This document shows positions 3,164 through 43,821 of a stretch of DNA of 43,821 nucleotides, piece after piece. The number at the start of each line of letters is the position of its first letter. Positions within the stretch are counted from its first letter, which is position 1. The stretch lies in contig JAUCBJ010000081.1 of assembly GCA_032718475.1 (NCBI GenBank), positions 1 through 43,821 on the forward strand, in the 5' to 3' direction. The notes beneath the pieces are model-generated. The model was given only the letters and a program-made list of their open reading frames with translations, was not told the DNA's origin and did no database searches. A program made the translations under genes and the position numbers. This DNA comes from Nemertoderma westbladi. Lineage: Eukaryota; Animalia; Xenacoelomorpha.

Positions 3164-3201
3164 ACTACTACTACTACTACTACTAGGTCGAGCGAACTCG
3201 G
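3162..3201 (-). mobile_element. RTE LINE 3' end with (TAG)8 tail
   Basis: (CTA)8 at 3162-3185. Joining to 15027 across the CTCGG TSD restores the ORF end ...STVRVRST*, whose stop is the first TAG of the tail. Confidence 0.88.
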
Positions 3202-3748
3202 TGTGACGGGATCCAGATGAGATCCCGGTTTATCCATTTGTTAGTTCACTCGTCCCCGCCGTGTATGAAAGATAAAGGAGTTTGTGCTGTTCCTCGTATA
3301 TAATATTTGGGTATACAGATATAGATATAGGTATAGATATGAGATAATATGGTTGTTGTATACGGAAGGCGGGATACGGTAACTAAAGTCCCGGTCCTTC
3401 CCTAGCTAAACTATCTAACCTAAACTAGCACCAATATTGCACTGAGATAACTGAATTGATATGATTACTGCCAAGTGGCTATATTGCACGGTTGGCCTTG
3501 TTACTCTACCTAATCGATGCCTTTCCCCCCTCTGATTGGTTGATACCCTTGTTGGCGCCCTTTGGAGTGTTCCCGTTCACTCCACCTGTTCTCTCTGGGT
3601 TAGGGGTTTGGCCCCTGACCCTCGTTGTGTGTTTCCTTCCCATTCTTATTGGGATGGCACGAGTTGGTTAATTGCCCAATCTCGTGGCTCCCAATATTGC
3701 TTATCGGCTTAACTTTATGGGGTGTTAGCGGGATTGAATAAGCGAACA
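3202..3748 (-). repeat. 3' LTR of element A
   Basis: TGTGAC...GCGAACA; near-identical to 14473-15021; adjacent to the PPT. Confidence 0.95.
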
Positions 3749-3757
3749 CTCCCCCCC
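3749..3757 (-). other. Polypurine tract of element A
   Basis: Minus strand GGGGGGGAG immediately precedes the TGT of the 3' LTR. Confidence 0.85.
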
Positions 3758-4460: not shown

Positions 4461-7008
4461 CTATCTGTTCCTCTGGGGATAGTTCCCCCTGGCATCCTCT
4501 TCCCTGGGTCGTTTCTTGGTTACCACCGTTCCTCTGGGATCCGCTTTCTGCTTTCGGACCTTTGCCGCCACCTCCCTGCTGATCCCGGTCGTTGGCTCCT
4601 TGGGCACTGGTGTTATTAGTGCCCGATATCGCTTCACCGGTGGCCCCTCAGAGTGGCCCGGTTGTCTCCCTCTGGTGGCGTCCCATAGGATCATCTTCAT
4701 TGCTTGTGGTACGTGCTCCGCCAAGAAATCCCTAAATTCCCTTCGGTTCTGTGGCGTCCATCTGTCCAAATATCTTTGCGTGTTCATCACTCCGGCGTAC
4801 GACGCCGCCGTTGCTACCTCTTGGTAGGTAAACGGTAGCCTCCGCTTTATGATTTCCATGTGAGTCTCCTGATTGATAAGGAAGAAACCCCACTTGAACT
4901 CCTGGGCCTTCATGCGCTGACGCGTCATGGCCCCGACGTCGGCCCACTCCTCGAATCTTGTGAACTTCTCCTCGTCATTCATCCAGTCGCACTCGCGTCC
5001 GTAGTGTCCCCGAAAGTGGCACTTTGGACATCGATTATGCAACCGTGGACACGCCCCCATCCTGTGGCTTGGCTCTCGGCAGTAGAGACAAAAAGGTTCC
5101 CTTCTGGAACCGGTACAAGCAGCTCCTTTCCTGGTGGGTCTGTCTCCCACAGTAGTTGCAGCCGAGTACCAATGTCTCCCGTCCCACCTCGTCTTTCGTC
5201 CCAAGCGATCTCCGCGGTCTGTGGAGTCGCTGGTAGGCGAACTTCTCCACGTTGGTGTCTCTATCTACGTCGATCTCTCCGCCCCTCTCGGGCATCGTCT
5301 CCCCGAATACTATCCATGGTGCCGTCCCCGGTTGCTCGCCCAACCTGATAGTGCTCCCCGCGAAATCCATCGCCGGCTCCTCGTGCACCCAGGTCCGCTT
5401 GCCGGATCTGTTCCAGAAGGCCCTCGCCCCACTGGCCATCACCACCCTTCCGCCAACCCAGTCCGTGTCCGAGTGGCCTATCCTCTCGATGGGCGGCATC
5501 TCTCCGAACTCGTCGTCGTCGTCCTCCTCTTTTGGCAGTGTCTCCAACCCTGGTATCCCGATGGATCCACTATGTCCCTTCCCGCCTTGGCTCTCGCCCG
5601 TAGCTCTCCATCCCTCTAACTCCCTTAACTTCCTTGGCGGTTGGTCGCCTTCGGCGCCCGCTGGTATGGGCATCGTTTGCAACCCCGACGTCGACTGTTT
5701 CGGTGATCCCACCGTCCATCCCAGTTCTCGCCCTAGAGACTCCCCCGAACTCCCTGATGAAGTCCAATGAAGTTCGTCTAGGCCTGCCTGTTCCTCGAAG
5801 CCGTAACTCTGTGTCCTGGCCTCCTCTTCCCTCTCCTCTGCTTCTATCCTCTCCCGTCTGGCGACTTCCTCTAGTCGCTTTGCTTCTCGTCTATCCGTCT
5901 CTAGCTGCTCCCATCTCTGATACGGCGTATCTGTCTCCCCGTCTACCAGATGTCGGCTGTTGTAGTACACCGACTCGCCCTTCAGCCCCGGGTGGTCTAC
6001 CAGACCGTCGAAGGCCGTCTTAAAGGCTCTCCTGTAGCTTAGGGGTGATCCCGATAACAGAAATGCCCCTGGTTCCCTCTCGATGACCACGGTCATAAAT
6101 AAGTTAAGCAAACTTATCATCATCCAATCTTCCTGCAGGATATATCGCTTCTGATATACCTTTATCGCTCCTCTGCAGAATTGATATACCTCTTGCTTTC
6201 CCGGTCTTGCTCCCCACTTTAGCGAGTTCGCTAGTTCTGCTCCGTATTCTTCCCTAAACTTCCCCCAATCCATCGGTTTGTGGCACACGAGCCCCAATAA
6301 TTGGCCCATTGCCACCGCCCCGCATTGGCCTGTGTTTTCGACTACCCCCAACCCATCCGGTGCCGTCATAGCCATAAAGACCTTCTGCATATCCAGGAGG
6401 TTGGTGGCGTCCGGACCGATGATTCTCTCCGCATCCTCGCGAATCGCCGATCCCACTTTCGTCGTCGACTTCTCTCTTACCAAGACTTGTACCGCTTTCG
6501 GTAACCGGTTTAATTTCGGCCCGTCCTTCTTCCCATACGTTCCTAGATCGAATAAGAAGATGTCCCCATTTGGCGCGGCCAAATGTAGGAGTATGGTCCT
6601 GGCCGACCCCGCCGTTCCTCGTCTCGAACCCGCCTCGTCTTCCACTGTTCCCTCGTCGTCTAGGATCATATATCCTCCTCTGTTGACGGACTCTATGAAT
6701 CTCTTCCAGTCCTTCCTCGGTGATTCCCTCGGGTACTTCGGAATCCCGAACTTCGCCTCGTCCCCTTTCACCACGTAGTGGAAGTGTTGGAAGATCGCGT
6801 TGTCCAGCGACGGCGTCCCGTAGGTCCCGACCAGCCGCTGTTCGTGCATCTCCCTGAAGTGATCCTGCAGCGCTCGCGCCGCGTGACCCCTTTCCAACCT
6901 CTCGTAGTATCCTCTCGTCTTCTCTTCTGGATGCCTCTCGGTGAAATCCACCAGTATCTCCTTTCCTCCTGACTCCGCCTTTCTCTTCCTGATCAACTTG
7001 CTCGCCAT
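4461..7008 (-). CDS. Accessory ORF3: DEDD(y)/DnaQ-like 3'-5' exonuclease, acidic linker and 3 CCHC zinc knuckles (one frameshift at about 5090-5094)
   Basis: YMILDDEG (ExoI), LLHLAAPNGDIFLFDL, LPKAVQVLVREKSTTKVGSAIREDAERI (ExoII), NLLDMQ, QKRYILQED (ExoIII-like); knuckles CNYCGRQTHQERSC, CLYCREPSHRMGAC, CPKCHFRGHYGREC. Copy B reads through the frameshift site in frame (QKGTSCLYC). ATG at 7008 is conserved in B (26196). Confidence 0.8.
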
Positions 7009-7494
7009 TCCGAACACTCACTCGCTCACCTGCAAGGGGGTGCCTTACCAAGGCGCAATACAGATGAGTGATGTATCTAGGATGTTCTGTACGGTTCGAT
7101 AATGGCCTATTTCTTACTTAACTGCGCCTTTTAACCTAAATTATTACTAATTAATTTTGAAGCTAGTAAATGAGCGTAATTTACGATTTCTGTCCGTTAC
7201 TTTTATTATGTTCTAGAATAACTTTCCTTGTGTTGCCATTATTTGTAACTTTCAGCCCTATTCTATTTATTCATCTATTTTAATTCTACTGTCCTACTAC
7301 TTACTATTACCTATGGATTATTCTATTCTCTAATCCACATTCTGGCCTACTCTGTGGGCCTATGCAGTACAGCAGTATGCGTCGTGTGGCCACACGATTT
7401 ACCCAGCTGTACTCATATGCCCCCCTCTCGCTACTAACTGCTAACTAATATCTATATCTTATATACCCCTTTTACCTCTTACTCTCTCTCTTCT

Positions 7495-8205
7495 AACTAA
7501 CGGTACTACGTACCCTCTAACTCTAATTCTAACTAACTAATGGTACTACGTACCCTCTAACTCTCCTCTAACTAACGGTACTACGTACCCTCTAACTCTT
7601 CTCTAACTAACGGTACTACGTACCCCCTAACTCTCTAACTAACTAGCGGTACTACGTACCCTCTAACTCTAACTAACTAGCGGTACTTACGTACCCTCTA
7701 ACTCTCTAACTAACTAACGGTACTTACGTACCCTCTAACTCTCTAACTAACTAACGGTACTTACGTACCCTCTAACTCTCTAACTAACTAGCGGTACTAC
7801 TTACCCTCTAACTCTAACTAACTAACGGTACTTACGTAACCTCTAACTCTAACTAACTAGCGGTACTTACGTACCCTCTAACTCTCTAACTAACTAGCGG
7901 TACTACGTACCCTCTAACTCTAACTAACTAGCGGTACTTACGTACCCTCTAACTCTAACTAACTAGCGGTACTTACGTACCCTCTAACTCTCTAACTAAC
8001 TAGCGGTACTACGTACCCTCTAACTCTAACTAACTAGCGGTACTTGCGTACCCTCTAACTCTCTAACTAACTAGCGATACTACGTACCCTCTAACTCTCT
8101 AACTAACTAGCGGTACTACGTACCCTCTAACTCTCTAACTAACTAGCGATACTACGTACCCTCTAACTCTCTAACTAACTAGGTACTACGTACCTCTTAA
8201 CTAAC
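7495..8205. repeat. Tandem array of about 20 units of 34-40 bp, each with a GGTAC-(T)TAC-GTACC mini-hairpin
   Basis: Unit approx CGGTACTACGTACCCTCTAACTCTCTAACTAACTAG, read directly from the sequence. Confidence 0.95.
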
Positions 8206-8394
8206 TTCTGCCTACTAACTGCGTACCTACTATGTACTTATTTATTTTATTTTATTTTCTATTTTTTTTGTGTGGGAAGGGCGTCTCGCCCTCAATCCCA
8301 CCCCCCTCAGTCCAAATCTTGGACGACTAAACTCTTCTCTAATTCCACTAAGGTGCTCCTTCTAGCAGACAGGTAACACCTCTGCCCGCACCTT

Positions 8395-11300
8395 TTACGG
8401 ATCTAACTCTTCCATCCCAGTCCAACCTGTTGGACAACTCAGCGACCCAAGGGGTGATTCCTCCAGCAGGCAACTCTCCCACTGCCCCCCTATAGGTTCT
8501 CTAATTCTTCGCTCCGCTCTCCTTGTCAATTCGATAGGTGGTCTTTTCTCCTGTTTTTGGAAATGCTGTCTGCTATTTATGTTTCTGATCTCGTGGTCGT
8601 CCCTTGGCGGCAAAGTGCCACCCTTCAACGTGTCACCCGGCGGTATAATGCCGCCCCTGTTCTTCTCCTTAATCTTAGATGCCACCTCTGCTGGCCTCCC
8701 CCTTAATATGTGTGCTGGCATTAAAGGCGTCCACGACCCCTGTTCGTCCTTCGGTATACACGGTCTCTGCCCATGTAATGCCCCTTCACACTCTGTCAGT
8801 CCCGCGTGCGTATGCAGCACGCCTCCTACTTTCCCGGATCCTTTGTCCATCACACGCACACCCACGGGCTTCTCTGCCCCTGGTCTGATCGTCTCAAGTC
8901 TTCTCCCTTTCCATTTAGTCCTCCTGCTCGGCCTCCCCCTTGTCGGCATGCCTCCCAACCGGACCGGCATCTCTTCCGGACACTTCTCCAGCCTGTCCCC
9001 TGGACATTTTGCCGTCCGCCCCTCTCCATCTCCATACCGATGCTTGCTGGGACTCTTGTTCCAGCCCATCGTCTCTAGATCTTCTGCATCCATGCCATTC
9101 TCCTCCGCCCACTCTCTTGGTGTTGCTTCCACTTCTAGCTGTCTACCACTATTGCCCATCTCTGGCCTCTCCTCTATCTCGTCGACAGTTCCTGGCACCA
9201 TGCATCCTGAACTCTCAGACACATGGAATGGTATATTACTCTTAATTGGGCCTGTCAGTGTCCACCCGAATGGTGTTAATATCGCCACCGGGTCACACTG
9301 CTTGTCTTTGCCGAAGACCGTTTGCATTCTTTCGTGGGCTGTTGGGCAGTCCATCCCTACTATGATGGATACCTTCCTAACGTCCACGTCTGGGATTGAG
9401 AAGTCAATGTCGTCCAGGAATTTATACTGCTCGACCTCGATGTTGGTTGGCCGCCTGGCATTGATATTAATTGACTCTATCACTTGGATGGGGTCGATGG
9501 TTGCCCCATAGTCGCATCCTGGTGCCACTGCTGCAATTGCGCACCGTCCTGTTCTCATCTCCAGGGTCTCATCTTTGCTAGAGATGGTTGTTACCGCCAT
9601 TCTGCTTGGTCTCGTTCTCAATCCTATCTCTTCGGCCACCCATTCCTCGACTAATGTGAAGGCAGCTACACTATCAACCAGCATTAGTGTTGTTACTGAT
9701 CGATTGCCTTCCCCAATCACTCGCACGGGTACTACTCCAAGTAACACCGTTCCTCTCTTCTTCGCCCCTACTGTGCTCGTCGCCATCGTTTGGCCTCTCC
9801 TCTGACCAAATTTTATCGGCTTCTCCTTGCACTCCCTTGCTCTATGTCCACTCATTACACATCGCGAGCAGATTTTGTTGCTCAACGCATAATCTATCTG
9901 ATCTTGCCTAGGTAGCGCCTGCCAGTACCTGCAGTTCATGGTTTGATGAAGCGCATTTGCGTGTAGCTGGCATTTGCTCTTTGGGTCGTAGCCCTCTTTA
10001 TACAGCGCATTGCGTATCGCAGTTGCGTTCGTACCAAAGTCCCTACTATTCTTATTGTTTGGATTCGGCCTAGTGGACATACTGGGGTTATGTTTATTCG
10101 TGTTGTTATTGTTTCCCTGTCCGTTCCATGGTGTTGTCTTATCCTCGGCTAGCTGTGGACTTGCAGTCCCCTGCGTCGCTGCATATGGCAATGATTGCCT
10201 GAGTCTCGGTAATGCGTTTGATGTATTGTGCTCTGGTTTCGGTCTATGGTAGTCTGTCTTCGGTCCCTTTCCCAGGCTATCTTCACTATAGACTGGGTCA
10301 GTTATTAGTTCAGCCTCGTAGTTTAAGAAGTTTGACATTTCTTCTAAACCCGGTTCCGCACCCTTCTTATCTCGAGTGGAGAAGGCGATTTTCCTCCACT
10401 TGTTGCGCAGCCAGTTTGGTAGTGCCTGCGCCATCGTGGTGATGTTGTTGGACGCGTTGAGCTCGTATGGCGCGTCTAGCGTCTTCAGCACGATCAGCGC
10501 CTTTTCTACTTTGTTAGCGAACGTTTTAATGCTAACGGGATTATCCTGTAGGCCACCCGATGTTATGCCTCTCAGCGTTTGCCTGATGATCTTGGCCAGG
10601 TGCCCGTATTCCCTATCCAGTGCCCGCCATGCTGTTGTGAAGCCGCCCTCTATTCCTTGATATTGCCTCACGATATCGTATGCTGGGCCTCCCGTGTATA
10701 CTTGCAGATACTTTAGGCACTCCGCCTGCATCAAGTTTTTTGTTAGTATTTCGTTACTATACATGCGCCGAAACTGTAGATATTCTTCCGGCCTGCTCCC
10801 ATCGAATTTGAATGGTTCCACGGGTGGTAGCTCGATCCTCGTTTTCAACGCATCGATCAACGTGGCCATCCCCATCGCCTGTGCTTCCAATGGGTTCGAC
10901 GGATGTTGTGTAGTTTCTCCTGTCTGGCACGGTTCGTCCGTCCTATTTCTTGACTTTCTCTGACTTGGGTATGTCATCGGGGGTAGCGGCCCCCTCCATA
11001 TATCTGTATCACACGACCTGTTCTCATCCAAGGGTCTCGTTGTTCTTGCTCCTATCGGGGTATATTGTTGATATTGTGATGGGGGAATGTCACCCTGTCC
11101 CCCCCCCCCCCCCCCCGCCGGTATGTTTGGTACTGGGGTTGATGTTAATATGTTGGGGCCCATACACCTATCCGCAATAATTCCCCCCTCCCCTGGGTAT
11201 ATGTTATGTCCCTGCATGCTGTAGTCATACTGCTGTACTGGTACCGGTATAGGCCTACCAGCTTCTGGCCTACCCGCCGGTATGTATTCCGCGACTTCCG

Positions 11301-11403: not shown

Positions 11404-12860
11404 GTGTCGCTCGGGATCGAAGTTTATTCTTCTCGAATAATCCTCCCCGCGGCTACCGTATTCTCGATCGATAGGTGTATTCCGTTGGAAAGTTTCTCTT
11501 CGACCCCCCCTCTCTACTGTTCTCGTCTTCGTACCGGTATATCGCGTACCCCTCCATCGGCGCGTAATGCGCCTCGCCGGGTCGCATCTCTCCGGGGCGA
11601 CGGCAATCTCCCGGAGTCCGACCCCACTGATTCTCCGTTCTCATCTCAACTACCGACGGCTCGCTATCCGTCCTCGCTCTTCTATCGTTCGCGGCGATAC
11701 CTCTACTACTGTCTTCTCTTCTTCTCCTTTCAGTGGAGTATTCCCGCTCGTGAGATCTCTCGTCGACCTCCCGGTTAAACCCCACTGTTCTTTTTCCCTC
11801 TTCTGATCAGGCTCGACGCTTCGTCCGCCCTCTTACGACGTCAACCTGTCTCTCTCTGCTCGGTCGCACGCCGCTGGGGATACTCGCAATCCCCCTATTA
11901 CTTTCCGTCGCCGGTTGTTGCGGTTTACCAATTTCGGCCCGCGCATTATCCGCTGACGGCTGTGGGACACTCTCTGCCCCCCCCCCTTTCGCCGCTAACT
12001 CGCTGTTGTGGGGTTCTCGTAGCCCCCCCCACTCGCACATCTAACTTCGCTACTCCTCACCCCTCTACTATATCCCTCTCCAGTCGACACATCAACCCTA
12101 CCGCGGTCGGGTCTATTCACCCCCGCCTCTCCCTCTGCTATTGCGTGGCCTACCAGGCCCTCTACTCCCTGCCTACCAACTATGTGGCCTACCAGGCCCT
12201 CGCTGGGTCTATTCAACCCAGCCACTCCCTGCCTACCAACTACCTGGCCTACCAGGCCCTCGCTGGGTCTACCTAACCCAGCTACTCCCTGCCTACCAAC
12301 TGTGTGGCCTACCAGGCCCTCGCTGGGTCTATTCAACCCAGCCACTCCCTGCCTACCAACTACGTGACCTACCAGGCCCTCGCTGGGTCTACCTAACCCA
12401 GCTACTTCCGGCCCACCAACTGTACGACCTACCAGGTCCCCGTCTGTCTGGCTATACACGCCCGACGTGTTTACGTTAATAGCACTCATATTGGAAACGG
12501 AATTAATTTGTTCGTTCGAAATAAAATCATTTGAATTACTTTGCGCGACTACACTATCTGAATTATTTTGTAAATTCGGGCTCGGATCATTATTTAAATT
12601 ATTTGGATTATTTTGTGTAATTGCGTTACTTAAATTATTTTGTAGGTTCGAATTTGGGTTATTATTTTGATTATTTGGATTATTTTGTATAGCTGCATTA
12701 ATATTAGAATTATTTTCTACGTTAATATTAGGGTTGTTCTGATTTAAATTTAAATTACTATCACTAGGCAAAGTATTTCCTGCAATAAAGGTTTGATTAG
12801 AATTATCCCATACGGTACTATTAATATTAACCACGTCTACTGTACCATTATCATTATTAC
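11404..12860 (-). CDS. Element A Gag N-terminal extension: Asn-rich region plus 20-aa repeats (interrupted reading frame)
   Basis: Track ORFs 11995-13044, 11807-12040 and 11453-11785 are collinear with the single 631-aa ORF of copy B; breaks at a G run (about 11980) and near 11800. Confidence 0.75.
12145..12440. repeat. 60-bp coding tandem repeat (EGLVGHVVGRQGVAGLNRPS)n
   Basis: Period-60 pattern; the copy B array (about 32060-32420) has one more unit. Confidence 0.9.
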
Positions 12861-14407
12861 CCCCCCCCCCCCCCCCCCCCGCCCGCACGGTCACACCAGT
12901 TTTGGGTCTGTCGTGCGGTCCCCGCAAGTGGGGCATTAATAAATGTATCCACGGCCCCCGGCTCCTCAAAAATACTCGAGCCAGCCTCGCTCTCAGACGC
13001 CCCCATCTGCGCCAGTTCCACCTCACGCGTGTGTACAGCTTCATACTCTACGAGTTTGTCTCGCTGTTTCTCCAATTCTTTTCGCTCACGCTCCACTTTT
13101 GCTATTTTATCCATAGCCTCCCGTTCGCTCTGCTCGGCCAATTCCATCTCTCTCCTAATCCCCTCCCTTCGCCTCACCTCAAGCTCTCTACGCTCACTCT
13201 CCTCCCTCGCTTCACGCTCTCTGCGTTCACTTTCCTCCCTCGCCTCACGCTTCTCGCGTTCGCTTTTCTCTCTCGCCACACGCTCCTCTTGTTCCTTCAA
13301 CTCTATTTCATCATACTCCCTAAGGCTCCTCACGGCCCTTTCGGCCCTCTCTCTTGTCTCTCTAATCGACGCCATTTCCCTCTCTAGCAGCACTCTCCCT
13401 TCCTCTAGCCGTCTACCTACTTCTCTATTACCTTGCACTGCTAGATTGAGACGGTACCTAGCGTCTATCTCTCTCACCCGTCTTTCTTTCGCGGAGGATG
13501 TAGCAGACTTCTCGGTTGTGAAGGATTCCCTCCGCCTTCTCGATCTACTAACTTTCCCCCTCCTCCCGGAACTCCCTCCGACCGACGAGAACGAATCCGC
13601 GGGGTCAACCTCGGATTCGCCCTCCTCAGGTCTGTTCCAACCCACTAATTTTATACCCCGGGCATCGATTAAATATGGCCCTATGTACACTACACTAGGT
13701 TGTATACCCCCATGCCGCCATGAGTCATACAGTTCCTCGGCAACCCTTCTCGCTCTCTCCTCGGCCAATTCTCTCTGCCCGAAACGCATTAGATAGTATA
13801 AATGTCTGTCCGACTTACCTAGTCCTGACTTCAGTTTTACCTCGTCTATCGTTTTCCCCTTTCTGGCCTCCTCTAGTAGTCTCCGGGTCGCGTTGTAGGC
13901 CCGTCGAAGTCGATCAGAGACCCCGACGTCCTCGTCGCCGACCTCTCCTCCATCTCTCCGGGTTCGACGTCGTACCGGCGGCCCCACCGTCGCCGTTCCG
14001 GTGGGCCGTCCGTCGCCCTCGGCCTGTGCCTGGCCGGCGACATCGGTATCGACATCTCCGACGTCTCTCCGGGTCCGGCGTCGTACCGTCGGCCCCACCG
14101 TCGCCGTCTCGGTGGGCCGTTCGTCGCTCTCGGCCTGTGGCTGGCCCGCGACATCGGCACGTCGACCCTCGTTCCGTGTCGACTCGTCTCTTTCTCCCTC
14201 GAGCTCGTTCTCTCTATCCTCCGACTCGACTCCCCTTCCTCTTGACTCGGCTTCTGACTCCAGACGGCCCCCCTCATCTTGAATCTCCGGTTCGCCCGTT
14301 ACCGATGGCTCCGGCGTCGTGGGCCTGTATCGCCTGGTTGCGGCCTCGCGGATCGTTAGCTCTTCGTCCGGGGTCCGCGTCGGTGTTGTCTCACCCGACT
14401 GACTCAT
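12857..14407 (-). CDS. Element A ORF1: Glu/Arg-rich, probable coiled-coil protein, 516 aa
   Basis: ATG 66 bp after the 5' LTR; 37-aa internal duplication; long ER-rich helix; homologous to 32834-34330. Confidence 0.8.
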   Translation of the reverse strand: MSQSGETTPTRTPDEELTIREAATRRYRPTTPEPSVTGEPEIQDEGGRLESEAESRGRGVESEDRENELEGERDESTRNEGRRADVAGQPQAESDERPTETATVGPTVRRRTRRDVGDVDTDVAGQAQAEGDGRPTGTATVGPPVRRRTRRDGGEVGDEDVGVSDRLRRAYNATRRLLEEARKGKTIDEVKLKSGLGKSDRHLYYLMRFGQRELAEERARRVAEELYDSWRHGGIQPSVVYIGPYLIDARGIKLVGWNRPEEGESEVDPADSFSSVGGSSGRRGKVSRSRRRRESFTTEKSATSSAKERRVREIDARYRLNLAVQGNREVGRRLEEGRVLLEREMASIRETRERAERAVRSLREYDEIELKEQEERVAREKSEREKREAREESERREREAREESERRELEVRRREGIRREMELAEQSEREAMDKIAKVERERKELEKQRDKLVEYEAVHTREVELAQMGASESEAGSSIFEEPGAVDTFINAPLAGTARQTQNWCDRAGGGGGGGG

Positions 14408-14472
14408 CTCTCTTTATCTCTAGATTGGTCGCTGAGTTTAGTTAGCTAGGGCGGCAGCTCTGATTTAGTTAC

Positions 14473-15021
14473 TGTGACGGGATCCAGATGAGATCCCGGT
14501 TTATCCGTTTGTTAGTTCACTCGTCCCCGCCGTGTATGAAAGATAAAGGAGTTTGTGCTGTTCGTCGTATATAATATTTGGGTATACAGATATAGATATA
14601 GGTATAGATATGAGATAATATGGTTGTTGTATACGGAAGGCGGGATACGGTAACTAAAGTCCCGGTCCTTCCCTAGCTAAACTATCTAACCTAAACTAGC
14701 ACCAATATTGCACTGAGATTACTGAACTGATATGATTACTGCCAAGTGGCTATATTGCACGGTTGGCCTTGTTACTCTACCTAATCGATGCCTTTCCCCC
14801 CTCTGATTGGTTGATACCCTTGTTGGCGCCCTTTGGAGTGTTCCCGTTCACTCCACCTGTTCTCTCTGGGTTAGGGGTTTGGCCCCTGACCCTCATTGTG
14901 TGCTTCTCCTTCCCATTCTTATTGGGGTGGCACGAGTTGGTTGATTACCCAATCTCATGGCTCCCAATATTGCTTATCGGCTTAACTTTATGGGGTGTTA
15001 GCGGGATTGAATAAGCTAACA
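14473..15021 (-). repeat. 5' LTR of element A
   Basis: TGTGAC...GCTAACA followed by TSD CTCGG; minus strand has CCAATCAG and an Inr-like TCAGTT. Confidence 0.95.
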
Positions 15022-17600
15022 CTCGGACAGTGGAAATGAGATCCTTCCAGGCTTCCCGATTCTCCATAGTTGTCGCAATTTCGTTTCTCCCAAGTTCAGT
15101 ATCCCTTTCAAGTTGATCTATATATGTTATGGCCGGTCGTCCACGACTACGCTTTCCATGAGTTGGTTGCCAGAGAAGTAGATCTGGTATGACCTCGTCT
15201 TTACTTCGCCAGCAGTGCCCACTGAATCTTAATCTGCGTTCACGGAGGGTGGTTGATACAGGGTGGTATTGTACCATAAAGCTCGGCGTTTGTCATGTGT
15301 TGTCTCCAGCTGATGTTTAGGGCTGCCCTTAGTAGTCTTGTGTAGCAACCATCAATTCGTTGTTCAAGTGATTTAGTCAGTGTCCAGGTCTCACCCCCGT
15401 ATAAAAATACACTTTCCACTGTGGCTCGAAAGAACTTAGTCTTCAGGTGCCTGGAGAGATCTGATTTCCAGATGGTATCCATTTTTGATAGAGCTACCCA
15501 AGCCTTTGCTTTCCTAACTTCTATGTCCTTTTTGCTACTCTCTATCCATGATCCAAGGTACTGGAAGTCATCGACCTTCCTTAGTTGATTATTATCAATG
15601 GTTGTCAAGTTTCCATCAACATTAAAGGTCATGAATTCGGTCTTGGTAGCATTTATATGCAATCCAACCTCCTTAGCAGCCCTCTCCACTTTATTTAGTA
15701 GAAGCTGTGCATCTGCTAGCGTATTAGAGAGCAGGGCGATGTCATCCGCAAAGTCGGTGTCTGTGACTGTAGTTGCTGGATATCTACTACTTCTGCGTTC
15801 TTGAAGTGTGAATCCCAGATCTTCACCCTTTGTGGCCGTCCTCATTGCGTAATCCAGCACAATTACAAATAGTAATGGTGCTAATGTGTCACCTTGCAGT
15901 ACGCCAGCCAGGATTGAGAAAAACTCAGTTTCACCATCTGGTGAGAGTACCTGCGCTTCTGTGTCACAATATAACAATCCAATACCAGCAACAATTACTT
16001 CTGGTATTCCATAAGCTCTTATGATTTCAAGCATTTTACCTCTATGGATGGAGTCGAATGCCTTCTTGAAGTCCACAAAAGTCATGACTGCGGGGAGATT
16101 CTTTGACTTAATTCCTTCAATCATTCTCCGTAGTGCAAGTATCTGAGCTATTGTTGATCTACTTGGTCGAAATCCGTTTTGGCTCTTACGCAGTAGTTTC
16201 TCTATGTGAGGCCTAATCCTATATAGAATCATTTTATTGTATATTTTGGCAGCTACCACAAGCAGACAGATCCCACGATAGTTTGTTGGTATGCCGAGGT
16301 CTCCTTTCTTGGGGAGAGAGGCTTTAGTTGACCTTTAGTCCAAATTGGTGGTGGCTTTTCCCCTTTTAACATCCGGTTGCAAACATTCAATAATGGTCTA
16401 TTTAGCACTCCGGTTTTCCATACCTCTGCTGGGATTTCATCTAATCCACTCGCTTTATTATTGGACATGCTTTTAATGCTTCTTTGGAGTTCGGCAGGTG
16501 TGAAGTCCCCTGTTTCTATAGGTAGTGTCTTGTCATATATTTTCCTTGTAGGGCTGACCTCGATGTTTGGTGGGTGCCCAAGCAAGTTGCTGAAGTGATT
16601 TTTACACGTTCTTCAGGACTATCGGCTTTGAGGCGCCCCTTTGCACAACTTTTCCGACCAGATACCTCATTTACAGTTTGCCAGGTAAGTCTTGATTGTT
16701 GCTGTATGTGAGCAGTTGTAATTGCTTCAGTTTTATCCTGTATGTACTTTTCCTGGCTGATGTTGTAGGCCAATTTAAGATCGTCCTTAGCTTTCTCAAC
16801 CTTGTTAATGTTTTCGGTTGTTGGTTGTTCGGTTTTAACTTTGTAGGCTATCTTAAGATCTTCTCTCTTACAAGTAACCTCAGACTTTTGCCATGGCACA
16901 TACTGTTTTCGTTTAGGTTTCTGGGGGATATGCCTCTTAGCTGATTCCTTGTGGGCTGTTATTATATTCTGGTATATTGAATCGGTGGATTGGTCTTCAT
17001 CCATTGACTGAAGTGCTTCAAAGCGGTTTTGAACTTCTACTGTATAAGCATCCTTTACAGCATTGTCAGTTCTGAGTTTCTCCCAGTCATAGTTGATTTG
17101 CTTGCTTGTCCTGGGTTTGCTGGATCTCAAACTGAGTCTGATCTCTGCAGTCACAATTCTGTGGTCCGAACCAATTAGGTTGAACGAGCTGTATGCCTCG
17201 CAGTTGATCATGCCATTCCTCCACTTTTTGTTTATAAGGATGTAATCCAGTTATGCTTTGGTTCCATTAGGGTATTGAAAGGTCCATAGCTTCCCCTTAC
17301 TCTTTTCGAATGTGTTGTTTGTTGGTATCAATTCACATTCTTCCATTAGGTCTAAAAGTAAGTACCCATTTCTGTTAGAACTGGTGTTATAGGTGTAACC
17401 CTTGATGTCTTCTGGGCCAATTTGCGCATTCAGGTCACCAGCAATGACTTTAACATTGTGTTTCGGGATGTCCTTAATAAGTCCAGTCAGTTCTTCATAA
17501 AACTTGACTGCTTGTTCTGGCTCTGATGCATTGGTTGGACTGTAGCAACATATAACTGTTGTCTTGGGATTCCCATCAAATGTTGCGATCATAACCCTGG
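15022..17600 (-). mobile_element. RTE-clade LINE, 5'-truncated, APE-RT with several frameshifts and stops
   Basis: CYSPTN, IAGDLNAQIG, GSDHRIV, QNGFRPSRST, FVDFKKAFDSIHR, GVLQGDTLAP, DFADDIALL, FQYLGS, YGGETWTLT, RRLRFSGHCWR, RGRP. Confidence 0.92.
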
Positions 17601-19830: not shown

Positions 19831-20399
19831 TAAATCCTAGGAGTGGCTAAATCCGTAAGGCGAATGCGGTGTAGATAAACAAAAAGAGTCTGAAGGATGT
19901 AACCATAATGGCAACGGTCTGACGGTAACCAATACCGGTATAATATATAACAGCAGACGGTAGTTAAAACAGTACTAACACTAACACAAACTAACAGACA
20001 TAATGCAGTCAGTTCAATATATATAAACCTATAGGTACTGTACCGGTAGGGCAAACAGTTATACATATAAACTGTGAGTCCATAATAACGAGAGAAAGCC
20101 GCCCCAATATTAGATTATTACAACAACATATCCATTGGGTAAGAAAGTGGAGGAGAGCCAGCCCGTCTCTTAATTTTTTACTTTATATTACGCGATCAAT
20201 TTTCACTCATCTCGTCATGAACCCAACATGTATGTAACCTTTTGTTAAATTTGTTGGCTATGCGTTTGCGGTTGTTTGGGCGGAGTGTGGTAGGCCTACA
20301 CTTTTCACACTTAAATATTTTGGTTGTGAAATGTTACAGGGCATAGCTATCTGAGATATTTCATTTATATTTTATTATGAGAGGAAGAAGAACATACAA

Positions 20400-21576
20400 C
20401 GTTATTTGTTCGCGCTTTTAGACCTTTAGCAGTTTAACCTGCCAAATTTAGGTGTCTTCTAGGTTATAAATCGACTTTAGCCTATAACAAGTATTTGATA
20501 CACATAAAGTTACATTAGCCGAAGCCAGCCTATGCGCGATCATTCACCCACGGTTAAGGGAGACTGGATTCGGATGCTCTGACCTTATTGCGGTGTAGAC
20601 TTACTGTATTATTCGATTGCTCGTTACTATAATATCTCTGACAAATATTATTCACTTTCGGGAAATATTAACAGTTCCTTTAGGACGTGGCGCTCTAAGT
20701 ATGTAAACAGAGTTATGACTTACACTAAACACAATGGGATGGCTATTGATTTTCGTATAAGGCGCATTCTTTAGGAAATGCTTTGTTATCTATCACACTC
20801 ATGCACACTACCGCACACTGCTGCACACTGATCTGCCGACCTTCACTAATTTTAATCATATATAGGGAGAACAGCAACTGACACATGTAGGGTCTATGAA
20901 ATAGCATTCAATTCACTCCAAAACCACTATAATGTAAGTCGCAATTGCTACAGGTAACCGGTCTCTCTAACCTTCAGTATATCAAGAAGATTGGGGTTTT
21001 ATAATCATTTATCGATATTCTCCAAATATAACAACCTAGCCATCAACTGATAACAATTAATAACCGACAGTAAATAGCAGTAAAATAATGCGGTGAAAGG
21101 TATGTATGGTATGATATGGGCTGATAACAGTTATACGTTTCTATGATCAAAGCCGTTCTAATGTTTGGCTAAAGTCTGAAACACAGAATAATTCCAAAGC
21201 CGATGTTCTGGGCTCAGGGAAAAAGGTAAACAAAGACCATAATGCATTGCGCGATTTCCCGGAGGCTTCTATGCAAATAAAATGAAAATCGCTCTGATTG
21301 GTCGAGTGAGTGAGCCTGAACAAAGAAAGCCAAAAGCTCCATGTCGACATATCAGCTGATAGATGTCGTCATCTGAACTACACTGTATTAAGAGTATTTT
21401 GGCGTATTGCGGCATAAAATGGCTTGTTATGTCCGCTAAAGTACACATACAGAAAAATGGCTTTTATGTCCACTAAAACACCTACACAGTAAGAAAACGG
21501 CTTTTTATGTCCGCTAAAACACCTACAGAGTACTTTGCGGGGAAAATGACTAGTTATATCCGCAAAAGCCTTTACA
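20400..21576 (-). repeat. 3' LTR of element C (about 1.18 kb)
   Basis: Near-identical to 42938-43821. Right boundary inferred from minus-strand GGGAGCGG|TGTAAAGG (PPT then TG). Confidence 0.8.
21415..21530. repeat. Three ~42-bp repeats in the U3 of the C LTR
   Basis: AAAA(T/C)GGCTTTTATGTCCGCTAAAACACCTACA-like unit, three times. Confidence 0.8.
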
Positions 21577-26629: not shown

Positions 26630-27325
26630 CTAACGGTACTACGTACCCTCTAACTCTCCTCTAACTAACGGTACTACGTACCCTCTAACTCTCCTCTAAC
26701 TAACGGTACTACGTACCCTCTAACTCTCTAACTAACTAGCGGTACTACGTACCCTCTAACTAACTCTCTAACTGACTAGCGGTACTACGTACCCTCTAAC
26801 TAACTCTCTAACTAACTAGCGGTACTACGTACCCTCTAACTAACTCTCTAACTGACTAGCGGTACTACGTACCCTCTAACTAACTCTCTAACTAACTAGT
26901 GGTACTATGTACCCTCTAACTAACTCTCTAACTGACTAGCGGTACTACGTACCCTCTAACTAACTCTCTAACTAACGGTACTACGTACCCTCTAACTCTC
27001 TAACTAACGGTACTACGTACCCTCTAACTAACTCTCTAACTGACTAGCGGTACTACGTACCTCCTAACTAACTAACTAACTATCGGCACTACGTACCTTC
27101 TAACTCTCTAACTAACTATCGGTACTACGTACCTTTTAACTCTCTAACTAACTATCGGTACTACGTACCTCCTAACTAATTAACTAACTATCGGCACTAC
27201 GTACCTTCTAACTCTCTAACTAACTATCGGTACTACGTACCTTTTAACTCTCTAACTAACAATCAGTACTACGTACCTCCTAACTAATTAACTAACTAGG
27301 TACTACGTACCTCTTAACTAACTTC
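26630..27325. repeat. Hairpin tandem array of element B (about 19 units)
   Basis: Same GGTACTACGTACC core, with 32-40-bp units. Confidence 0.95.
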
Positions 27326-27468: not shown

Positions 27469-29320
27469 CTAAGGTGCTCCTTCTAGCAGACAGCATTTCC
27501 CTACAGCTCTCCTGTAGGTTTTTCTGTCCTTCGCACCTATCTTACCACCTATCCGCACTTCTACCGATCGGACTCTTCCGTCCTCGTCGGAATAAGTGCC
27601 TACAACTCTCGCCAACCGCCACTGGTTGTTGATGATAGTATCATCCGTAACGATTACGAGATCTCCTTCTCTTAACTCCCTATTTGGCTTCCTCCACTTA
27701 CTCCTTTTATGGAGTGTGGGTAGGTATTCCTCGACCCACCTCCTCCAATACTCTGCGCTTATTGCTTTAGCGACTTTCCAACTCTGGCGGGAGTGTATGT
27801 CATCTGGGTCTACACCCCGCATATCGATGGTCGCTGGCCTTTCCATCAGGAAATGGCTAGGCGTCAGCACGTCTAATGACTCAGGGTCATCATTCTCCGG
27901 GTATAGCGGTCTGCTATTAATGATCCCCTCGAACTTCGCAAGTACTGTCCGTAAGACGTCTTCAGTGACCATGTGGGTGTTCATCAGCTTCGTCATTAGA
28001 CGCTTTGAACTGCCCACCAGTCTCTCGACGCATCCTAGTTTATGTGGTGCATACGGCGTCCTTCTCTCCCACTTTACTTGTCGTCGTCTCATGGCCGCCC
28101 TGACTTCTTCTCCCTCCAAGATGTCCAAGGCCTCTGCCATCTCACTCTCTGCGCCCACAAAGTTGGTGCCGTTGTCGCTGTATATCATTGCAATCGTCCC
28201 ACCTTTGCGGTCTCTAAACCTTTCTAAGGCATTAATGAATGCTGATGCGGTTGCATCTTGGGCGAGTTCTATCCCCACCGCCCGTGTGTTGTTGCATACG
28301 AAGATAATGCCGTAGCGTTTCTCCGTGTGTCGCATCACTTTGATCTTTATCGGCCCGAACATGTCCACACCGCAATGCGTAAATGGCGGGTCGTGCTGTC
28401 TTACCCTACTCGCCGGTAGTGGCGCCATCTCCTGTACGGCTCGCTCCTTCTTCGCTCGTCGGCAAGTCTGGCACTGCCCCACTACCGCTTTTACCTTCTT
28501 CCTCAATTGTTTGACCCAATAGGTCCTCCTTATCTCTGTGAGGGTTCGGTTGGTGCCCCCATGCAATATCGACTTGTGGGAGTCCCAGATAATCTGGTGG
28601 ACTATTGGCGATCCTGTGGGAATGATGATGGGTTTCGGTGGTACGACTATGCTGTTGTTGTATCCCACCCTAGAATTCATTACTAGAATCCCGTCGTCAT
28701 TGAGTTGTGGCGACAGCGTAATCAGCTCGCTGTCCCGTCGGAGGTGCTGTTGGTTACCGACGCGTTCCACCTCGTCGCCATAGTTCTTCCGTTGTTCATA
28801 GCGGATGATTGCCTTAGCCACTCCTTCCAGATCTATGTATGTCTTGATCTTCTTTTCCTTGCCAACTCCCGCGAGGAAATTCCCGAAGGCTCTCCAGTAC
28901 GCCACTAGTTTCTTGGTCTTATACCAACTAGAACTGTAGCTGAGGAGTTTATCCATCGGGTTATCGCACAGTTCTCGTCTTGGTTGCACGTCCCTAATCT
29001 CCCTCACCATCTGGGAGTATATCTCTTCTCCCTCTGAATCTCCCTCTTCTCCCTCTGATACCACTTCTGAGCCCGGATCCACCTTTCTCATCGGCGGCCA
29101 GGCCTCCTTATCGCTCAGAAATCGTGGCCCATGCTGCCACAATACTTCCTTCTTCAAGAAAGTGTGGCGTTCCACGCCCCTCGATAGCAAGTCCGCTGGG
29201 TTCTCGTCTGTTGGGCAGTAGTGCCACCTTTCCAGTTCTGTGGTCGCCCTTATTTCGTCCACTCTATTTGAGACGAATATCGGGTATCTCGTCCTTTCGT
29301 TGTGTAGCCAACCAAGCACT
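27469..29320 (-). CDS. Element B RNase H C-terminus plus BEL/Pao integrase
   Basis: VLGWL..FVSNRVDEI, WHYCPTDENPADLLSRG, H..ILHGG...CQTC, GVDMFGP, IYSDNGTNFVGA, ERLVGSSKR, INSRPL, LTPSHFL, GRVRSVEV. Confidence 0.93.
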
Positions 29321-32300: not shown

Positions 32301-32836
32301 TGGGTCTATCCAACCCAGCCACTCCCTGCCTACCAACTACATGGCCTACCAGGCCCTCGTCGGGTCTACCTAACCCAGCCACTTCCGGCCTACTAACTCT
32401 ACGACCTACCAGGCCCTCGTCTGTCTGGCCATACACGCCCGACGTGTTTACGTTAATAGCACCCATATCGGAAACGGAATCAATTTGTTCGTTCGAAACA
32501 AAATCATTTGAATTACTTTGCGCGACTACACTATTTGAATTATTTTGTAAATTCGGGCTCGGATCATTATTTAAATTATTTGGATTATTTTGTGTAATTG
32601 CGTTACTTAAATTATTTTGTAGGTTCGAATTTGGGTTATTATTTTGATTATTTGGATTATTTTGTGTAGCTACATTAATATTAGAATTATTTTCTACATT
32701 AATATTAGGATTGTTCTGATTTAAATTTAAATTACTATCACTAGGCAAAGTATTTCCTGCAATAAAGGTTTGATTAGAATTATCCCATACGGTACTATTA
32801 ATATTAACCACGTCTACTGTACCATTATCATTATTA
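29321..32836 (-). CDS. gag: Element B Gag and protease (frameshift at the G run, about 31020)
   Basis: ORFs 30970-32865 and 29264-31081, near-identical to A; protease motif LVDSGAAFT intact. Confidence 0.9.
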
Positions 32837-34330: not shown

Positions 34331-34436
34331 CTTCTTTACCTCTAGATTGGTGGCTGGTAGTCGCTGTTTATCTAGGGCGGCAGCTGGTTTTAGTTACTGT
34401 TACAGTTTAACTAGGGCGGCAGCTCGATTTAGTTAC

Positions 34437-34976
34437 TGTGACGGGATCCAGGAGGGATCCCGGTTTATCCGGTGTTAGTTCACGCGTCCCCGCCGTGTGT
34501 GAAGAGTAAATGAAAATGAGTAAATGAGTTCGCGTCCTTCGTTGTATATAATGATCGGTATAAAGATATAGATATAGGTTGTTGTACACGGAAGGCGGGA
34601 TACGGTAACTAAAGTCCCGGTCCTTCCCTAGCTAAACTATCTAACCTAAACTGGCACTAATATTGCACTGAGATAACTGAACTGATATGATTACTGCCAA
34701 GTGGCTATATTGCACGGTTGGCCTTGTTACTCTACCTAATCGATGCCTTTCCCCCCTCTGATTGGTTGATACCCTTGTTGGCGCCCTTTGGAGTGTTCCC
34801 GTTCACTCCACCTGTTCTCTCTGGGTTAGGGGTTTGGCCCCTGACCCTCATTGTGTGCTTCTCCTTCCCATTCTTATTGGGGTGGCACGAGTTGGTTGAT
34901 TACCCAATCTCGTGGCCCCCAATATTGCTTATCGGCTTAACTTTATGGGGTGTTAGCGGGATTGAATAAGCTAACA
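34437..34976 (-). repeat. 5' LTR of element B
   Basis: TGTGAC...GCTAACA; matches the A LTRs except in the U5-side ~140 bp. Confidence 0.93.
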
Positions 34977-41465: not shown

Positions 41466-42937
41466 TCAATTATTTTAGAATAATTGAATTTCTGAATTTT
41501 TAGGGTTACTTAGTTACTTTACTTTACTTTATTACCATTATTTAAGCAGTAGTCCAACTGATATTAAGACCTAATTGTTGTATGACAGGCCTACTATTTT
41601 ATAAATCGTTTGAGTTGATTTATAATATATATACCCGCTTGATGGGTTTTTTGACAATATTTGAAATAAATGTTATTATTTCTGGGAAGGAGTCACTACA
41701 CAGAAGCTGTACGCTCTCAGTGAAGTGCTACTTGTTGGACACTAAAACAAATAATTCTACTAGCCTAAGTTACTTATTACTACAAATTACGTACAATACG
41801 GGGTGAGATTACAATCTCTAAATAAACACAAAAATTACACGTACGAATTTTTAGGGTTAATTTTACAGGGAATCTACAAACCAGCTTTACAAGGAGTTAG
41901 AATCTCTGGTTATTACAGACGGACAAGATACTACGGTATTTGAAAATAATAAAGCAGTAGTAAATATATTGCGTTGTCTAGATAGGAAAATACCACCGTC
42001 TGACGACTTATAGCCGTAGCGCTATAAGTACTACATTATGTACCCGGAGTGTTCCACCTAGAAGTTAATTACCGCAGCCTACTATAGCTAATGTGCCTTC
42101 GGAAAGCACTGTACACTAAACCCTAAATTAGGTACAAGTACTTATACAACAAATAACCAGCAGTTAAAAATACTTGTACAGCTAAAAGAACCACGGTATC
42201 TGCCGGAGTGACCAGAGCATAAAATCACCAGTCTTTACCTACGCCAAACAGTCCTGATGTAGTACCGGGGTTAATTTAACTATAACGGTATGTATAACAA
42301 GCACAATTACTGTAGGAATAAACTTGGGGTTGTGAATGTTGCGAATAATCGCATAAACTCTGAATAATAAATATTACGCTACCCGTACAGACTACACAAA
42401 CAAAATACAGACCAAATGCTGGCAGACTACTATCAAGCCTAAATAAACTACAGTATATACAGACTCCGAAATGGTTAGTTAGTATGCATTCTAACCGAGT
42501 AGTACGACTTATTCTTTCGGGGGGGGGGGGGGGGGGGATTTACCTTACAGCACTGGATGCCCCCACATTCCTAACTAGTACTTTATCGGACATACACTCT
42601 ACACACACTGCAATCTTTTCGGACCTGACAACAGCCAGACAACAATCCAGCTTACAAATTACCTGTACAATCTGAGCAGGCTTACACGCCTTCTGCTCAA
42701 TATTAACTTACAAATAAATAAAACTGACAGAAATAAATAAGCTCCAAAAGAAACAAGGGGTGTACAGTCCCTAATCTCTTAAACAGCCTACCAATATACA
42801 ATATCACAATCGAAATAATACTAGTACCTGTACTGCTGTAAGTACCGGTTCAGGTGGTTAGGTAGTTAGGCCTACTGGTTACCGGTCGACCGGTACTTTT
42901 GCCTTTATTGCCTATGTTGCAATAAAGAAATTATAAC

Positions 42938-43821
42938 TGTTATTGTTCATGCTTTTAGACCTTTAGCAGTTTAACCTGCCAAATTTAGGTGTCTTCTAGG
43001 TTATAAATTGACTTTAGCCTATAACAAGTATTTGATACACATAAAGTTACATTAGCCGAAGCCAGCCTATGCGCGATCATTCACCCACGGTTAAGGGAGA
43101 CTGGATTCGGATGCTCTGACCTTATTGCGGTGTAGACTTACTGCATTATTCGATTGCTCGTTACTATAATATCTCTGACAAATATTATTCACTTTCGGGA
43201 AATATTAACAGTTCCTTTAGGACGTGGCGCTCTAAGTATGTAAACAGAGTTATGACTTACACTAAACACAATGGGATGGCTATTGATTTTCGTATAAGGC
43301 GCATTCTTTAGGAAATGCTTTGTTATCTATCACACTCATGCACACTACCGCACACTGCTGCACACTGATCTGCCGACCTTCACTAATTTTAATCATATAT
43401 AGGGAGAACAGCAACTGACACATGTAGGGTCTATGAAATAGCATTCAATTCACTCCAAAACCACTATAATGTAAGTCGCAATTGCTACAGGTAACCGGTC
43501 TCTCTAACCTTCAGTATATCAAGAAGATTGGGGTTTTATGATCGTTTATCGATATTCTCAAAATATAATAACATAGCCATCAACTGATAACAATTAATAA
43601 CCGACAGTAAATAGCAGTAAAATAATGCGGTGAAAGGTATGTATGGTATGATATGGGCTGATAACAGTTATACGTTTCTATGATCATAGCCGTTCTAATG
43701 TTTGGCTAAAGTCTGAAACACAGAATAATTCCAAAGCCGATGTTCTGGGCTCAGGGAAAAAGGTAAACAAAGACCATAATGCATTGCGCGATTTCCCGGA
43801 GGCTTCTGTGCAAATAAAATG
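42938..43821 (-). repeat. 5' LTR of element C (cut by the window edge)
   Basis: Starts TGTTATTG; matches 20400-21283. Confidence 0.9.

Follow-up and report, generated by a model that had tools for sequence, protein, structure and literature searches.

Candidate priming from an internal word of the long terminal repeat in two BEL/Pao-type retrotransposon families of Nemertoderma westbladi

The window analysed here, the whole 43,821-nucleotide (nt) stretch of Nemertoderma westbladi contig JAUCBJ010000081.1, carries on its minus strand two copies (A and B) of a long terminal repeat (LTR) element, family A/B, as well as an older BEL/Pao element, family C, within which copy B sits. BEL/Pao (Belpaoviridae/Semotivirus) is the third large superfamily of LTR retrotransposons and is confined to animals; by its domains and LTRs, family A/B is a BEL/Pao-type element with no close recorded relative. 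In LTR elements the 3′ end of the primer pairs at the base that follows U5. In both families this primer-binding site (PBS) position holds no tRNA-type site, and its bases are the exact complement of a word inside the element's own LTR, a relation that may reflect self-priming of minus-strand synthesis.

The primer position and its complement in the LTR

14473..15021, minus strand: 5′ LTR of copy A, 549 nt, TGTTAGC...CGTCACA, delimited by three-way LTR alignment
14464..14472, minus strand: PBS position of copy A, GTAACTAAA, the first 9 nt past the LTR
14650..14658, minus strand: LTR motif TTTAGTTAC, LTR positions 364-372, candidate 3′ end of a self-derived primer
3202..3748, minus strand: 3′ LTR of copy A, 547 nt, 97.8% identity to the 5′ LTR
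34437..34976, minus strand: 5′ LTR of copy B, 540 nt

Copy A extends from 15021 to 3202 on the minus strand, between LTRs that read TGTTAGC...GTCACA and so have TG..CA ends. Its 5′ LTR terminates in ...CCCGTCACA and continues into GTAACTAAAT (14472..14463), the sense strand there reading GTAACTAAATCAG. The 9 nt at the PBS position, GTAACTAAA, are the exact reverse complement of TTTAGTTAC; from this motif to the LTR end there are 177 nt (about 180 nt in the original prediction), and the pairing can be stretched into the LTR end to give 11/13 positions. No TGG occurs in the first 173 nt (copy A) or 187 nt (copy B) past the LTR. The motif TTTAGTTAC is identical in all three A/B LTR copies (3387..3379 in the 3′ LTR of copy A; 34613..34605 in copy B, for which no 3′ LTR was found in the window), and the PBS-position letters of copy B (34436..34428) are the same as those of copy A. 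The original prediction had proposed that family A/B has no tRNA-type PBS, that the PBS position pairs with a loop motif of its own LTR and that copy B conserves this arrangement; all of this was confirmed, as were the letters and positions given for the site, the motif and the CGGGA/TCCCG stem around it, the 11/13 pairing included.

An exact complement of at least 9 nt, anchored at the first base past the LTR, arose at a frequency of 0.0022 in 5000 dinucleotide-preserving shuffles of the LTR, or 0.007 when start offsets of 0-5 were allowed. The best LTR:leader duplex of A/B, taking both of its helices together (see below), reached -31.9 kcal/mol, compared with -24.8 +/- 3.0 kcal/mol for shuffled leaders (as good as the real one in 0.024 of 1000) and -23.0 +/- 2.8 kcal/mol for shuffled LTRs (0.005 of 1000). 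The octamer TAACTAAA is present eight times in the window against 2.2 expected, a count reached in 0/100 shuffles, and seven of these eight occurrences fall in A/B LTRs and leaders.

Family C displays the same relation in other letters, at the following places.

42944..43821, minus strand: 5′ LTR of family C, cut by the window end
21322..20407, minus strand: complete 3′ LTR of family C, 916 nt, TGTTCA...TGAACA
42932..42943, minus strand: PBS position of family C, ATAACAGTTATA, the first 12 nt past ...CATGAACA
43661..43672, minus strand: LTR motif of family C, TATAACTGTTAT, LTR positions 188-199, 717 nt before the LTR end

Here ATAACAGTTATA is the exact complement of TATAACTGTTAT (12/12), the motif is identical in both C LTR copies, and the 150 nt past the LTR are free of TGG, the first being met at leader position 151. 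The frequency of an anchored complement of at least 12 nt was 0.0002 in 20000 shuffles. The LTRs of family C are unrelated to those of A/B and no Gag-protease similarity between the two families was detectable (tblastn, E 1e-4), so that the relation has been kept with different letters. The chosen end of the C LTR is backed by a drop in identity (from about 98% to 15/20 beyond it), by a 6-nt terminal inverted repeat and by the GAACA ends of relatives; blastn extends the LTR similarity 19 nt past this end. A weaker 8-nt complement of leader positions 2-9 is found at about LTR 646, a position reckoned from distance.

Three further observations concern these repeats and leaders. The 19 nt past the 3′ LTR of family C (20388-20406) resemble the start of the PBS and leader of the 5′ copy (15/20, two indels), which can be read as a retained copy of the primer site, a tandem arrangement or chance. 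The C leader holds a perfect 16-nt palindrome, TACCGGTCGACCGGTA, about 50 nt past the PBS position (42880-42895), a candidate dimerisation site. A 10-mer, CCAATCAGAG, is common to the A/B and C LTRs (14803-14812 and 21292-21301, minus strand; LTR positions 212 and 22), lying 152 nt (A/B) and 166 nt (C) upstream of the respective primer-like motif.

RNA structure, promoter words and control elements

14636..14672, minus strand: hairpin GGAAGG-AC-CGGGA, 14-nt loop, TCCCG-CCTTCC, with motif TTTAGTTAC in the loop
14442..14451, minus strand: leader arm of a second duplex, CCCTAGCTAA, leader positions 22-31
14671..14680, minus strand: LTR arm of the second duplex, TTAGCTAGGG, LTR positions 342-351, duplex -15.3 kcal/mol
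34389..34436, minus strand: tandem PBS units of the copy B leader, ACA-GTAACTAAA..GCTGCCGCCCTAG twice, with GTAACTAAA at 34428-34436 and 34389-34397
14437..14445, minus strand: second PBS-like copy in the copy A leader, CTAACTAAA, matching the second unit of the copy B tandem duplication
14512..14531, minus strand: U5 segment GGCGGGGACGAGTGAACTAA, competing partner of the motif/hairpin region in minimum free energy folds

A second exact duplex of 10 nt between the LTR and the leader, absent from the original prediction, runs colinear to the first. The spacers that separate the two are 12 nt long on either side and mutually unrelated (3/12 matches); a 10-nt complement between these two neighbourhoods had a frequency of 0.010-0.019 in 20000 shuffles. 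Copy B carries one C-to-T change in this second block, which preserves the pairing as G:U, and its first block is unchanged. In copy B the PBS unit, which takes in the final ACA of the LTR, occurs as a tandem duplication, of which copy A keeps a partial remnant; such a duplication would be expected if the word were used in strand transfer. Hairpins were rejected as independent evidence, being no better than shuffles (z = -1.24 for the one that holds the motif, at -16.8 kcal/mol, with 27/200 shuffles folding at least as well, and a second z of -1.01).

14710..14812, minus strand: candidate core promoter of A/B, CCAAT (LTR 212), AATATAG (266) and initiator-like TCAGT (292, 297, 306), motif positions only
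14565..14575, minus strand: TATATA word, LTR 449, alternative promoter, in all three LTR copies

The upstream words of the A/B LTR have canonical spacing, and with a transcript start there, as predicted, the motif would fall some 60-80 nt into R. In the relatives described below, the distance from TATA words to the LTR end is 176-274 nt, which fits the upstream A/B candidate better (R-U5 of about 250 nt).

As a control set, an integrase profile was used to collect 80 metagenome loci, 30 of which have internal direct repeats; 21 were inspected and 16 kept, with L004, L014, L062, L067 and L072 dropped (3′ copy partial or cut by the contig end), while the repeats of L055 and L058, which fail to bracket the integrase match correctly, are doubtful. 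Twelve of the 16 relatives, all from one assembly, carry TGGTCCTTC(G/A)AGCC... 1-5 nt past the LTR (11 directly, and L063 after correction of an early alignment stop). This agrees with the background statement of the original prediction that BEL/Pao elements are normally tRNA-primed, as do passages of PMC4580426 that give Achilles, a BEL/Pao element, a tRNA-Tyr site. The longest own-LTR complement starting at most 6 nt from the LTR end measured 5-8 nt in 16/16 relatives, against 9 (A), 9 (B) and 12 nt (C); tRNA sites are therefore the rule in the relatives and the self-complement measure is not trivially met. At L004:2110-2135 and L014:2145-2170 both the LTR alignment and the contig break off at the point from which the 5′ copy runs on into (T)TGTAAGTAAT, which resembles a consensus 5′ splice site.

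Searches for tRNA genes came back empty both for the window and for the 26 of the 80 related loci that were scanned, and no Rfam family reached its gathering score in the window. The 17-nt word at the LTR/PBS junction gave 15 matches in bacterial genome contigs, taken as chance, and none in viral contigs, where protein-based scans likewise returned no relative of the A/B Gag-protease or the C reverse transcriptase. Inverted or fold-back LTR fragments, as footprints of dead-end cDNA, were not present in the window (blastn, word size 9). A primer formed across a splice junction in the A/B LTR was rejected, with 0 donor/acceptor combinations giving a leader complement of at least 10 nt and the 9-nt complement being contiguous; a 5′ splice donor at the LTR/leader junction (ACA followed by GTAACT) was set aside by eye, the G being missing at -1 and +5.

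Self-priming, its alternatives and known systems

Because a tRNA-type site is missing and the post-LTR bases exactly complement the element's own LTR in two unrelated families, RNA from that LTR is a likely minus-strand primer in A/B and C, a reading to which we give a probability of about 0.5. Transcription of A/B would start at the TCAGT words (LTR 292-308), which are preceded by AATATAG at a distance of about 28 nt and by CCAAT at about 82 nt, and would place TTTAGTTAC in a hairpin loop within R. The 5′ part of the RNA would fold back so that the loop pairs with leader nt 1-9 and LTR 342-351 with leader 22-31 (19 base pairs in two helices). Cleavage by an RNase H activity 3′ of C372, on the Tf1 pattern, would create the primer 3′ end, which reverse transcriptase would extend across the 177 nt of LTR that follow the motif. 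Having no reverse transcriptase, A/B would therefore depend on an autonomous relative such as C, and family C, with its reverse-transcriptase region and the same kind of site, is a candidate helper.

Several points weigh against self-priming in this form. Canonical TATA words are involved in both families: downstream of the A/B motif lies TATATA (LTR 449), which as a promoter would put the motif in U3, and in family C TATAAAA at 320, TATATAT at 459 and a TCAGTG 35 nt later are all downstream of the motif (188). If the downstream TATA words are promoters, the motif would lie in U3 and be absent from the RNA 5′ end, an arrangement that the original prediction had counted as a refutation and that is the more natural layout for family C. 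A primer supplied, as in Tf1, by the 5′ end of the very RNA that is copied thus looks plausible for A/B and doubtful for C. In contrast to Tf1, the motif is not at a predicted 5′ terminus, and with a primer of such length one must ask what would end plus-strand strong-stop synthesis. The 9-base-pair duplex of A/B is short, AU-rich and worth only -7.3 kcal/mol, the hairpins do not exceed shuffles, and minimum free energy folds of candidate transcripts often pair the motif with the U5 segment and not with the leader, which makes alternative conformers plausible. The C LTR end was fixed partly after the match had been seen (allowing for 13 possible starts, P is about 0.003), and the C site is a near-palindrome (ATAAC-N-GTTAT), so that the motif as a direct repeat (10/11) is almost as good as the pairing (12/12). 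The two relatives without TGG (L016, L056) show no self-complement, and all relatives are distant (about 30-36% integrase identity). Covariation, which the original prediction had named as a check, appears once across families, in the 12-nt complement of C with its other letters; within A/B the motif and site are invariant in all copies, with no compensatory change. The wider proposal of tRNA-independent priming is thus supported in part, by the missing TGG, the exact own-LTR complement and family C; the downstream TATA words weigh against it, and ORF3 as its nuclease is unsupported (see below).

The same downstream TATA words, by placing the motif in U3 (especially in C), would suit a pairing that is real without being a primer: a long-range RNA contact of the leader with R at the 5′ end or U3 at the 3′ end, which cyclises or switches the RNA and aids initiation or the first strand transfer, another RNA serving as primer. 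The two-helix layout with its competing U5 partner resembles a structural switch, and precedents are described in parts of PMC3592414 (Ty1 CYC5/CYC3) and PMC5371799 (the bipartite site of Ty3). We regard this as rather unlikely, however, since the pairing in both families covers exactly the bases of the primer 3′ end, from the first post-LTR base on; if the contact blocks the site, so that no other primer fits, it is difficult to see how synthesis would be initiated, and no other primer candidate emerged, there being no TGG and no tRNA or Rfam match in the window.

Should the primer come from the host, as an internal tRNA fragment of the copia/Ty5 kind or a small RNA, the LTR copy would be incidental. 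Half-tRNA priming without TGG is indeed known, according to passages of PMC5371799 and PMC3592414 for copia and Ty5 and of PMC6317226 for plants, but two host RNAs would be needed for the differing sites of A/B and C, and the exact primer-like word in the own LTR of two unrelated families would be left unexplained; we hold host priming to be decidedly improbable. That the words have no RNA function, arising by chance in low-complexity TA/AG-rich LTRs and leaders or as protein-binding DNA words repeated in both orientations, we consider quite unlikely. Words of the form (G)TAACTAA(A) do recur in sense in U5 and twice in the leader, beside a single antisense copy, the C word is a near-palindrome, the second block alone reaches only P 0.01-0.02, many features were examined initially and the C LTR end was chosen partly after the match. 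Yet both matches begin at the first post-LTR base, with the shuffle frequencies of 0.0022 and 0.0002 given above, 0/16 controls exceed 8 nt, and the A/B word is not palindromic.

A more far-reaching version of self-priming, which we put forward as speculative and improbable in its entirety, is that the BEL/Pao elements of this animal have abandoned the tRNA and draw their primer from an internal stretch of their own LTR RNA, brought into place by two helices and presented in a hairpin. The primer word of C would lie in U3 and be supplied by the 3′ end of the same RNA or by a co-packaged genome, joining priming to 5′-3′ cyclisation, and A/B, without a reverse transcriptase, would parasitise the enzyme of C with the same priming logic.

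To our knowledge, fission-yeast Tf1-type elements are the only ones for which experiments have demonstrated self-priming. In Tf1, according to passages of PMC7175516, the first 11 bases are paired to the PBS and the RNase H cut falls between base 11 and base 12, and a similar proposal for Tj1 of S. japonicus is found in parts of PMC4600332. Like Tf1 and Tf2 of Schizosaccharomyces pombe, Tj1 and the Tf1/sushi group of Ty3/gypsy chromoviruses, A/B and C have no tRNA site and a post-LTR PBS that complements their own LTR, and RNase H cleavage would set the proposed primer free, as those passages of PMC7175516 and PMC4600332 have it. Unlike that group, they carry BEL/Pao-specific domains (DUF1759, Peptidase_A17, DUF5641) and no chromodomain was found in them, so they are not members of the clade; at most, the element works like a Tf1-type one. 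They also differ from Tf1 in that neither demonstration nor prediction puts the word at a 5′ terminus, the pairing comprises 9 or 12 nt instead of 11, the A/B word stands in a hairpin loop with a second helper duplex, and the C word is 717 nt upstream of its site, possibly in U3; A/B and C are, moreover, known from sequence alone.

In this last respect they resemble the plant Tcn1 chromoviruses and the TAR lineage of Ty1/copia, for which Neumann et al. (2019) predicted self-priming from sequence, outside fission yeast (passages of PMC6317226); the trait is therefore scattered over superfamilies. Those elements are plant Ty3/gypsy and Ty1/copia, and the main-text passages of PMC6317226 that we drew on contain no BEL/Pao case. 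In Ty1, CYC5 adjoining the PBS must pair with CYC3 near the 3′ end (parts of PMC3592414), and in Ty3 half of the primer site lies in the 3′ U3 (parts of PMC5371799); as in A/B and C, a short PBS-adjacent sequence pairs or cooperates with the 3′ U3 or 3′ end of the same RNA, but according to those same parts Ty1 and Ty3 use the initiator methionine tRNA with a recognisable site, whereas in A/B and C the pairing occupies the primer position itself. With tRNA-primed BEL/Pao elements (Achilles, and the 12 metagenome relatives with TGGTCCTTCGAGCC) the families share a Gag with DUF1759, an aspartic protease, a Pao-type RNase H region and an integrase with DUF5641, as well as TG..CA LTRs with TGTTC/GAACA-like ends and a 5-bp target duplication; unlike A/B and C, canonical BEL/Pao elements have TGG 1-5 nt past the LTR and no LTR self-complement above 8 nt. 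A BEL/Pao survey (PMC3118150) mentions neither PBS nor tRNA, and a full-text literature search, judged by titles and abstracts, found no published report of BEL/Pao self-priming.

If BEL/Pao elements do prime themselves, tRNA-independent priming either arose several times or is ancient, and such elements would be systematically overlooked or misjudged by annotation pipelines in which a tRNA site is a requirement. The pair formed by A/B without, and C with, a reverse transcriptase, both bearing the same kind of site, would be a system for asking how a primer that is not at the 5′ end is cut from RNA.

Coding regions and further features of the elements

15022-15026 and 3197-3201, both flanks: 5-bp target duplication of copy A, CCGAG
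3749-3757, minus strand: polypurine run of copy A, GGGGGGGAG, preceding the 3′ LTR
5035-7017, minus strand: ORF3, open reading frame (ORF) of 660 amino acids, orphan

Copy A has the LTR traits of BEL/Pao elements (TG..CA ends, short target duplication, polypurine tract). Pfam profiles detected DUF1759 and an aspartic protease in copies A and B (DUF1759 E 1.8e-9 and 3.2e-11), and Integrase_H2C2, rve and DUF5641 (E 3e-24) in copy B as well, which also encodes an RNase H-like region; a search of 5.8 billion proteins gave metazoan BEL/Pao-like proteins as the best relatives of its integrase, with identities of 36% at most. The reverse-transcriptase region is absent from both copies, and RNase H and integrase also from copy A; family A/B is therefore non-autonomous. 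Family C has DUF1759, protease, RVT_1 and Peptidase_A17 (Pfam), so that the BEL/Pao domain set is found overall in A/B and C, with the caveat of the reverse-transcriptase region missing from A/B. No Pfam match was obtained for the upstream ORFs of copy A (14413..12857 and 13047..11995).

The original prediction had also suggested ORF3 as a possible priming nuclease, which we found unsupported. ORF3 has no Pfam match even at E 10 and no homologue in a word-indexed search, one marginal match (E 4.8e-4) being returned from 1.84 billion representatives. A language-model resemblance to 3′-5′ exonuclease clusters (DNA_pol_A_exo1/EXD1-like) is a sub-threshold lead (0.86), and the single-sequence fold, with a pLDDT of 38, was unusable.

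Where copy B sits within family C, the Pol of C ends at about residue 414 of the full-length relative P0018, 42 nt before the copy B 5′ LTR (35019-34977, minus strand), and the copy B RNase H-integrase (29349-27481, minus strand) resumes at about residue 417 of P0018. It looks as if a 5.6-kb 5′ half of A/B, from LTR to protease, had been set seamlessly into the pol of C; no target duplication is visible at the inner junction of this chimera. Copy A shares the first 22-27 nt of the copy B RNase H start and then diverges, and its positions 8372-9404 comprise 1033 nt unmatched elsewhere in the window, the same place in copy B being taken by RNase H-integrase (27493-29322). Long tandem arrays with periods of 60, 40, 36 and 21 nt occur in the coding regions of A/B and C (12033-12572, 31950-32549, 26680-27287, 7441-8274 and 39534-39899). 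An ORF at 15240-16334 (minus strand; strong RVT_1 match, E 2e-35) belongs to another retroelement, the target into which copy A inserted.

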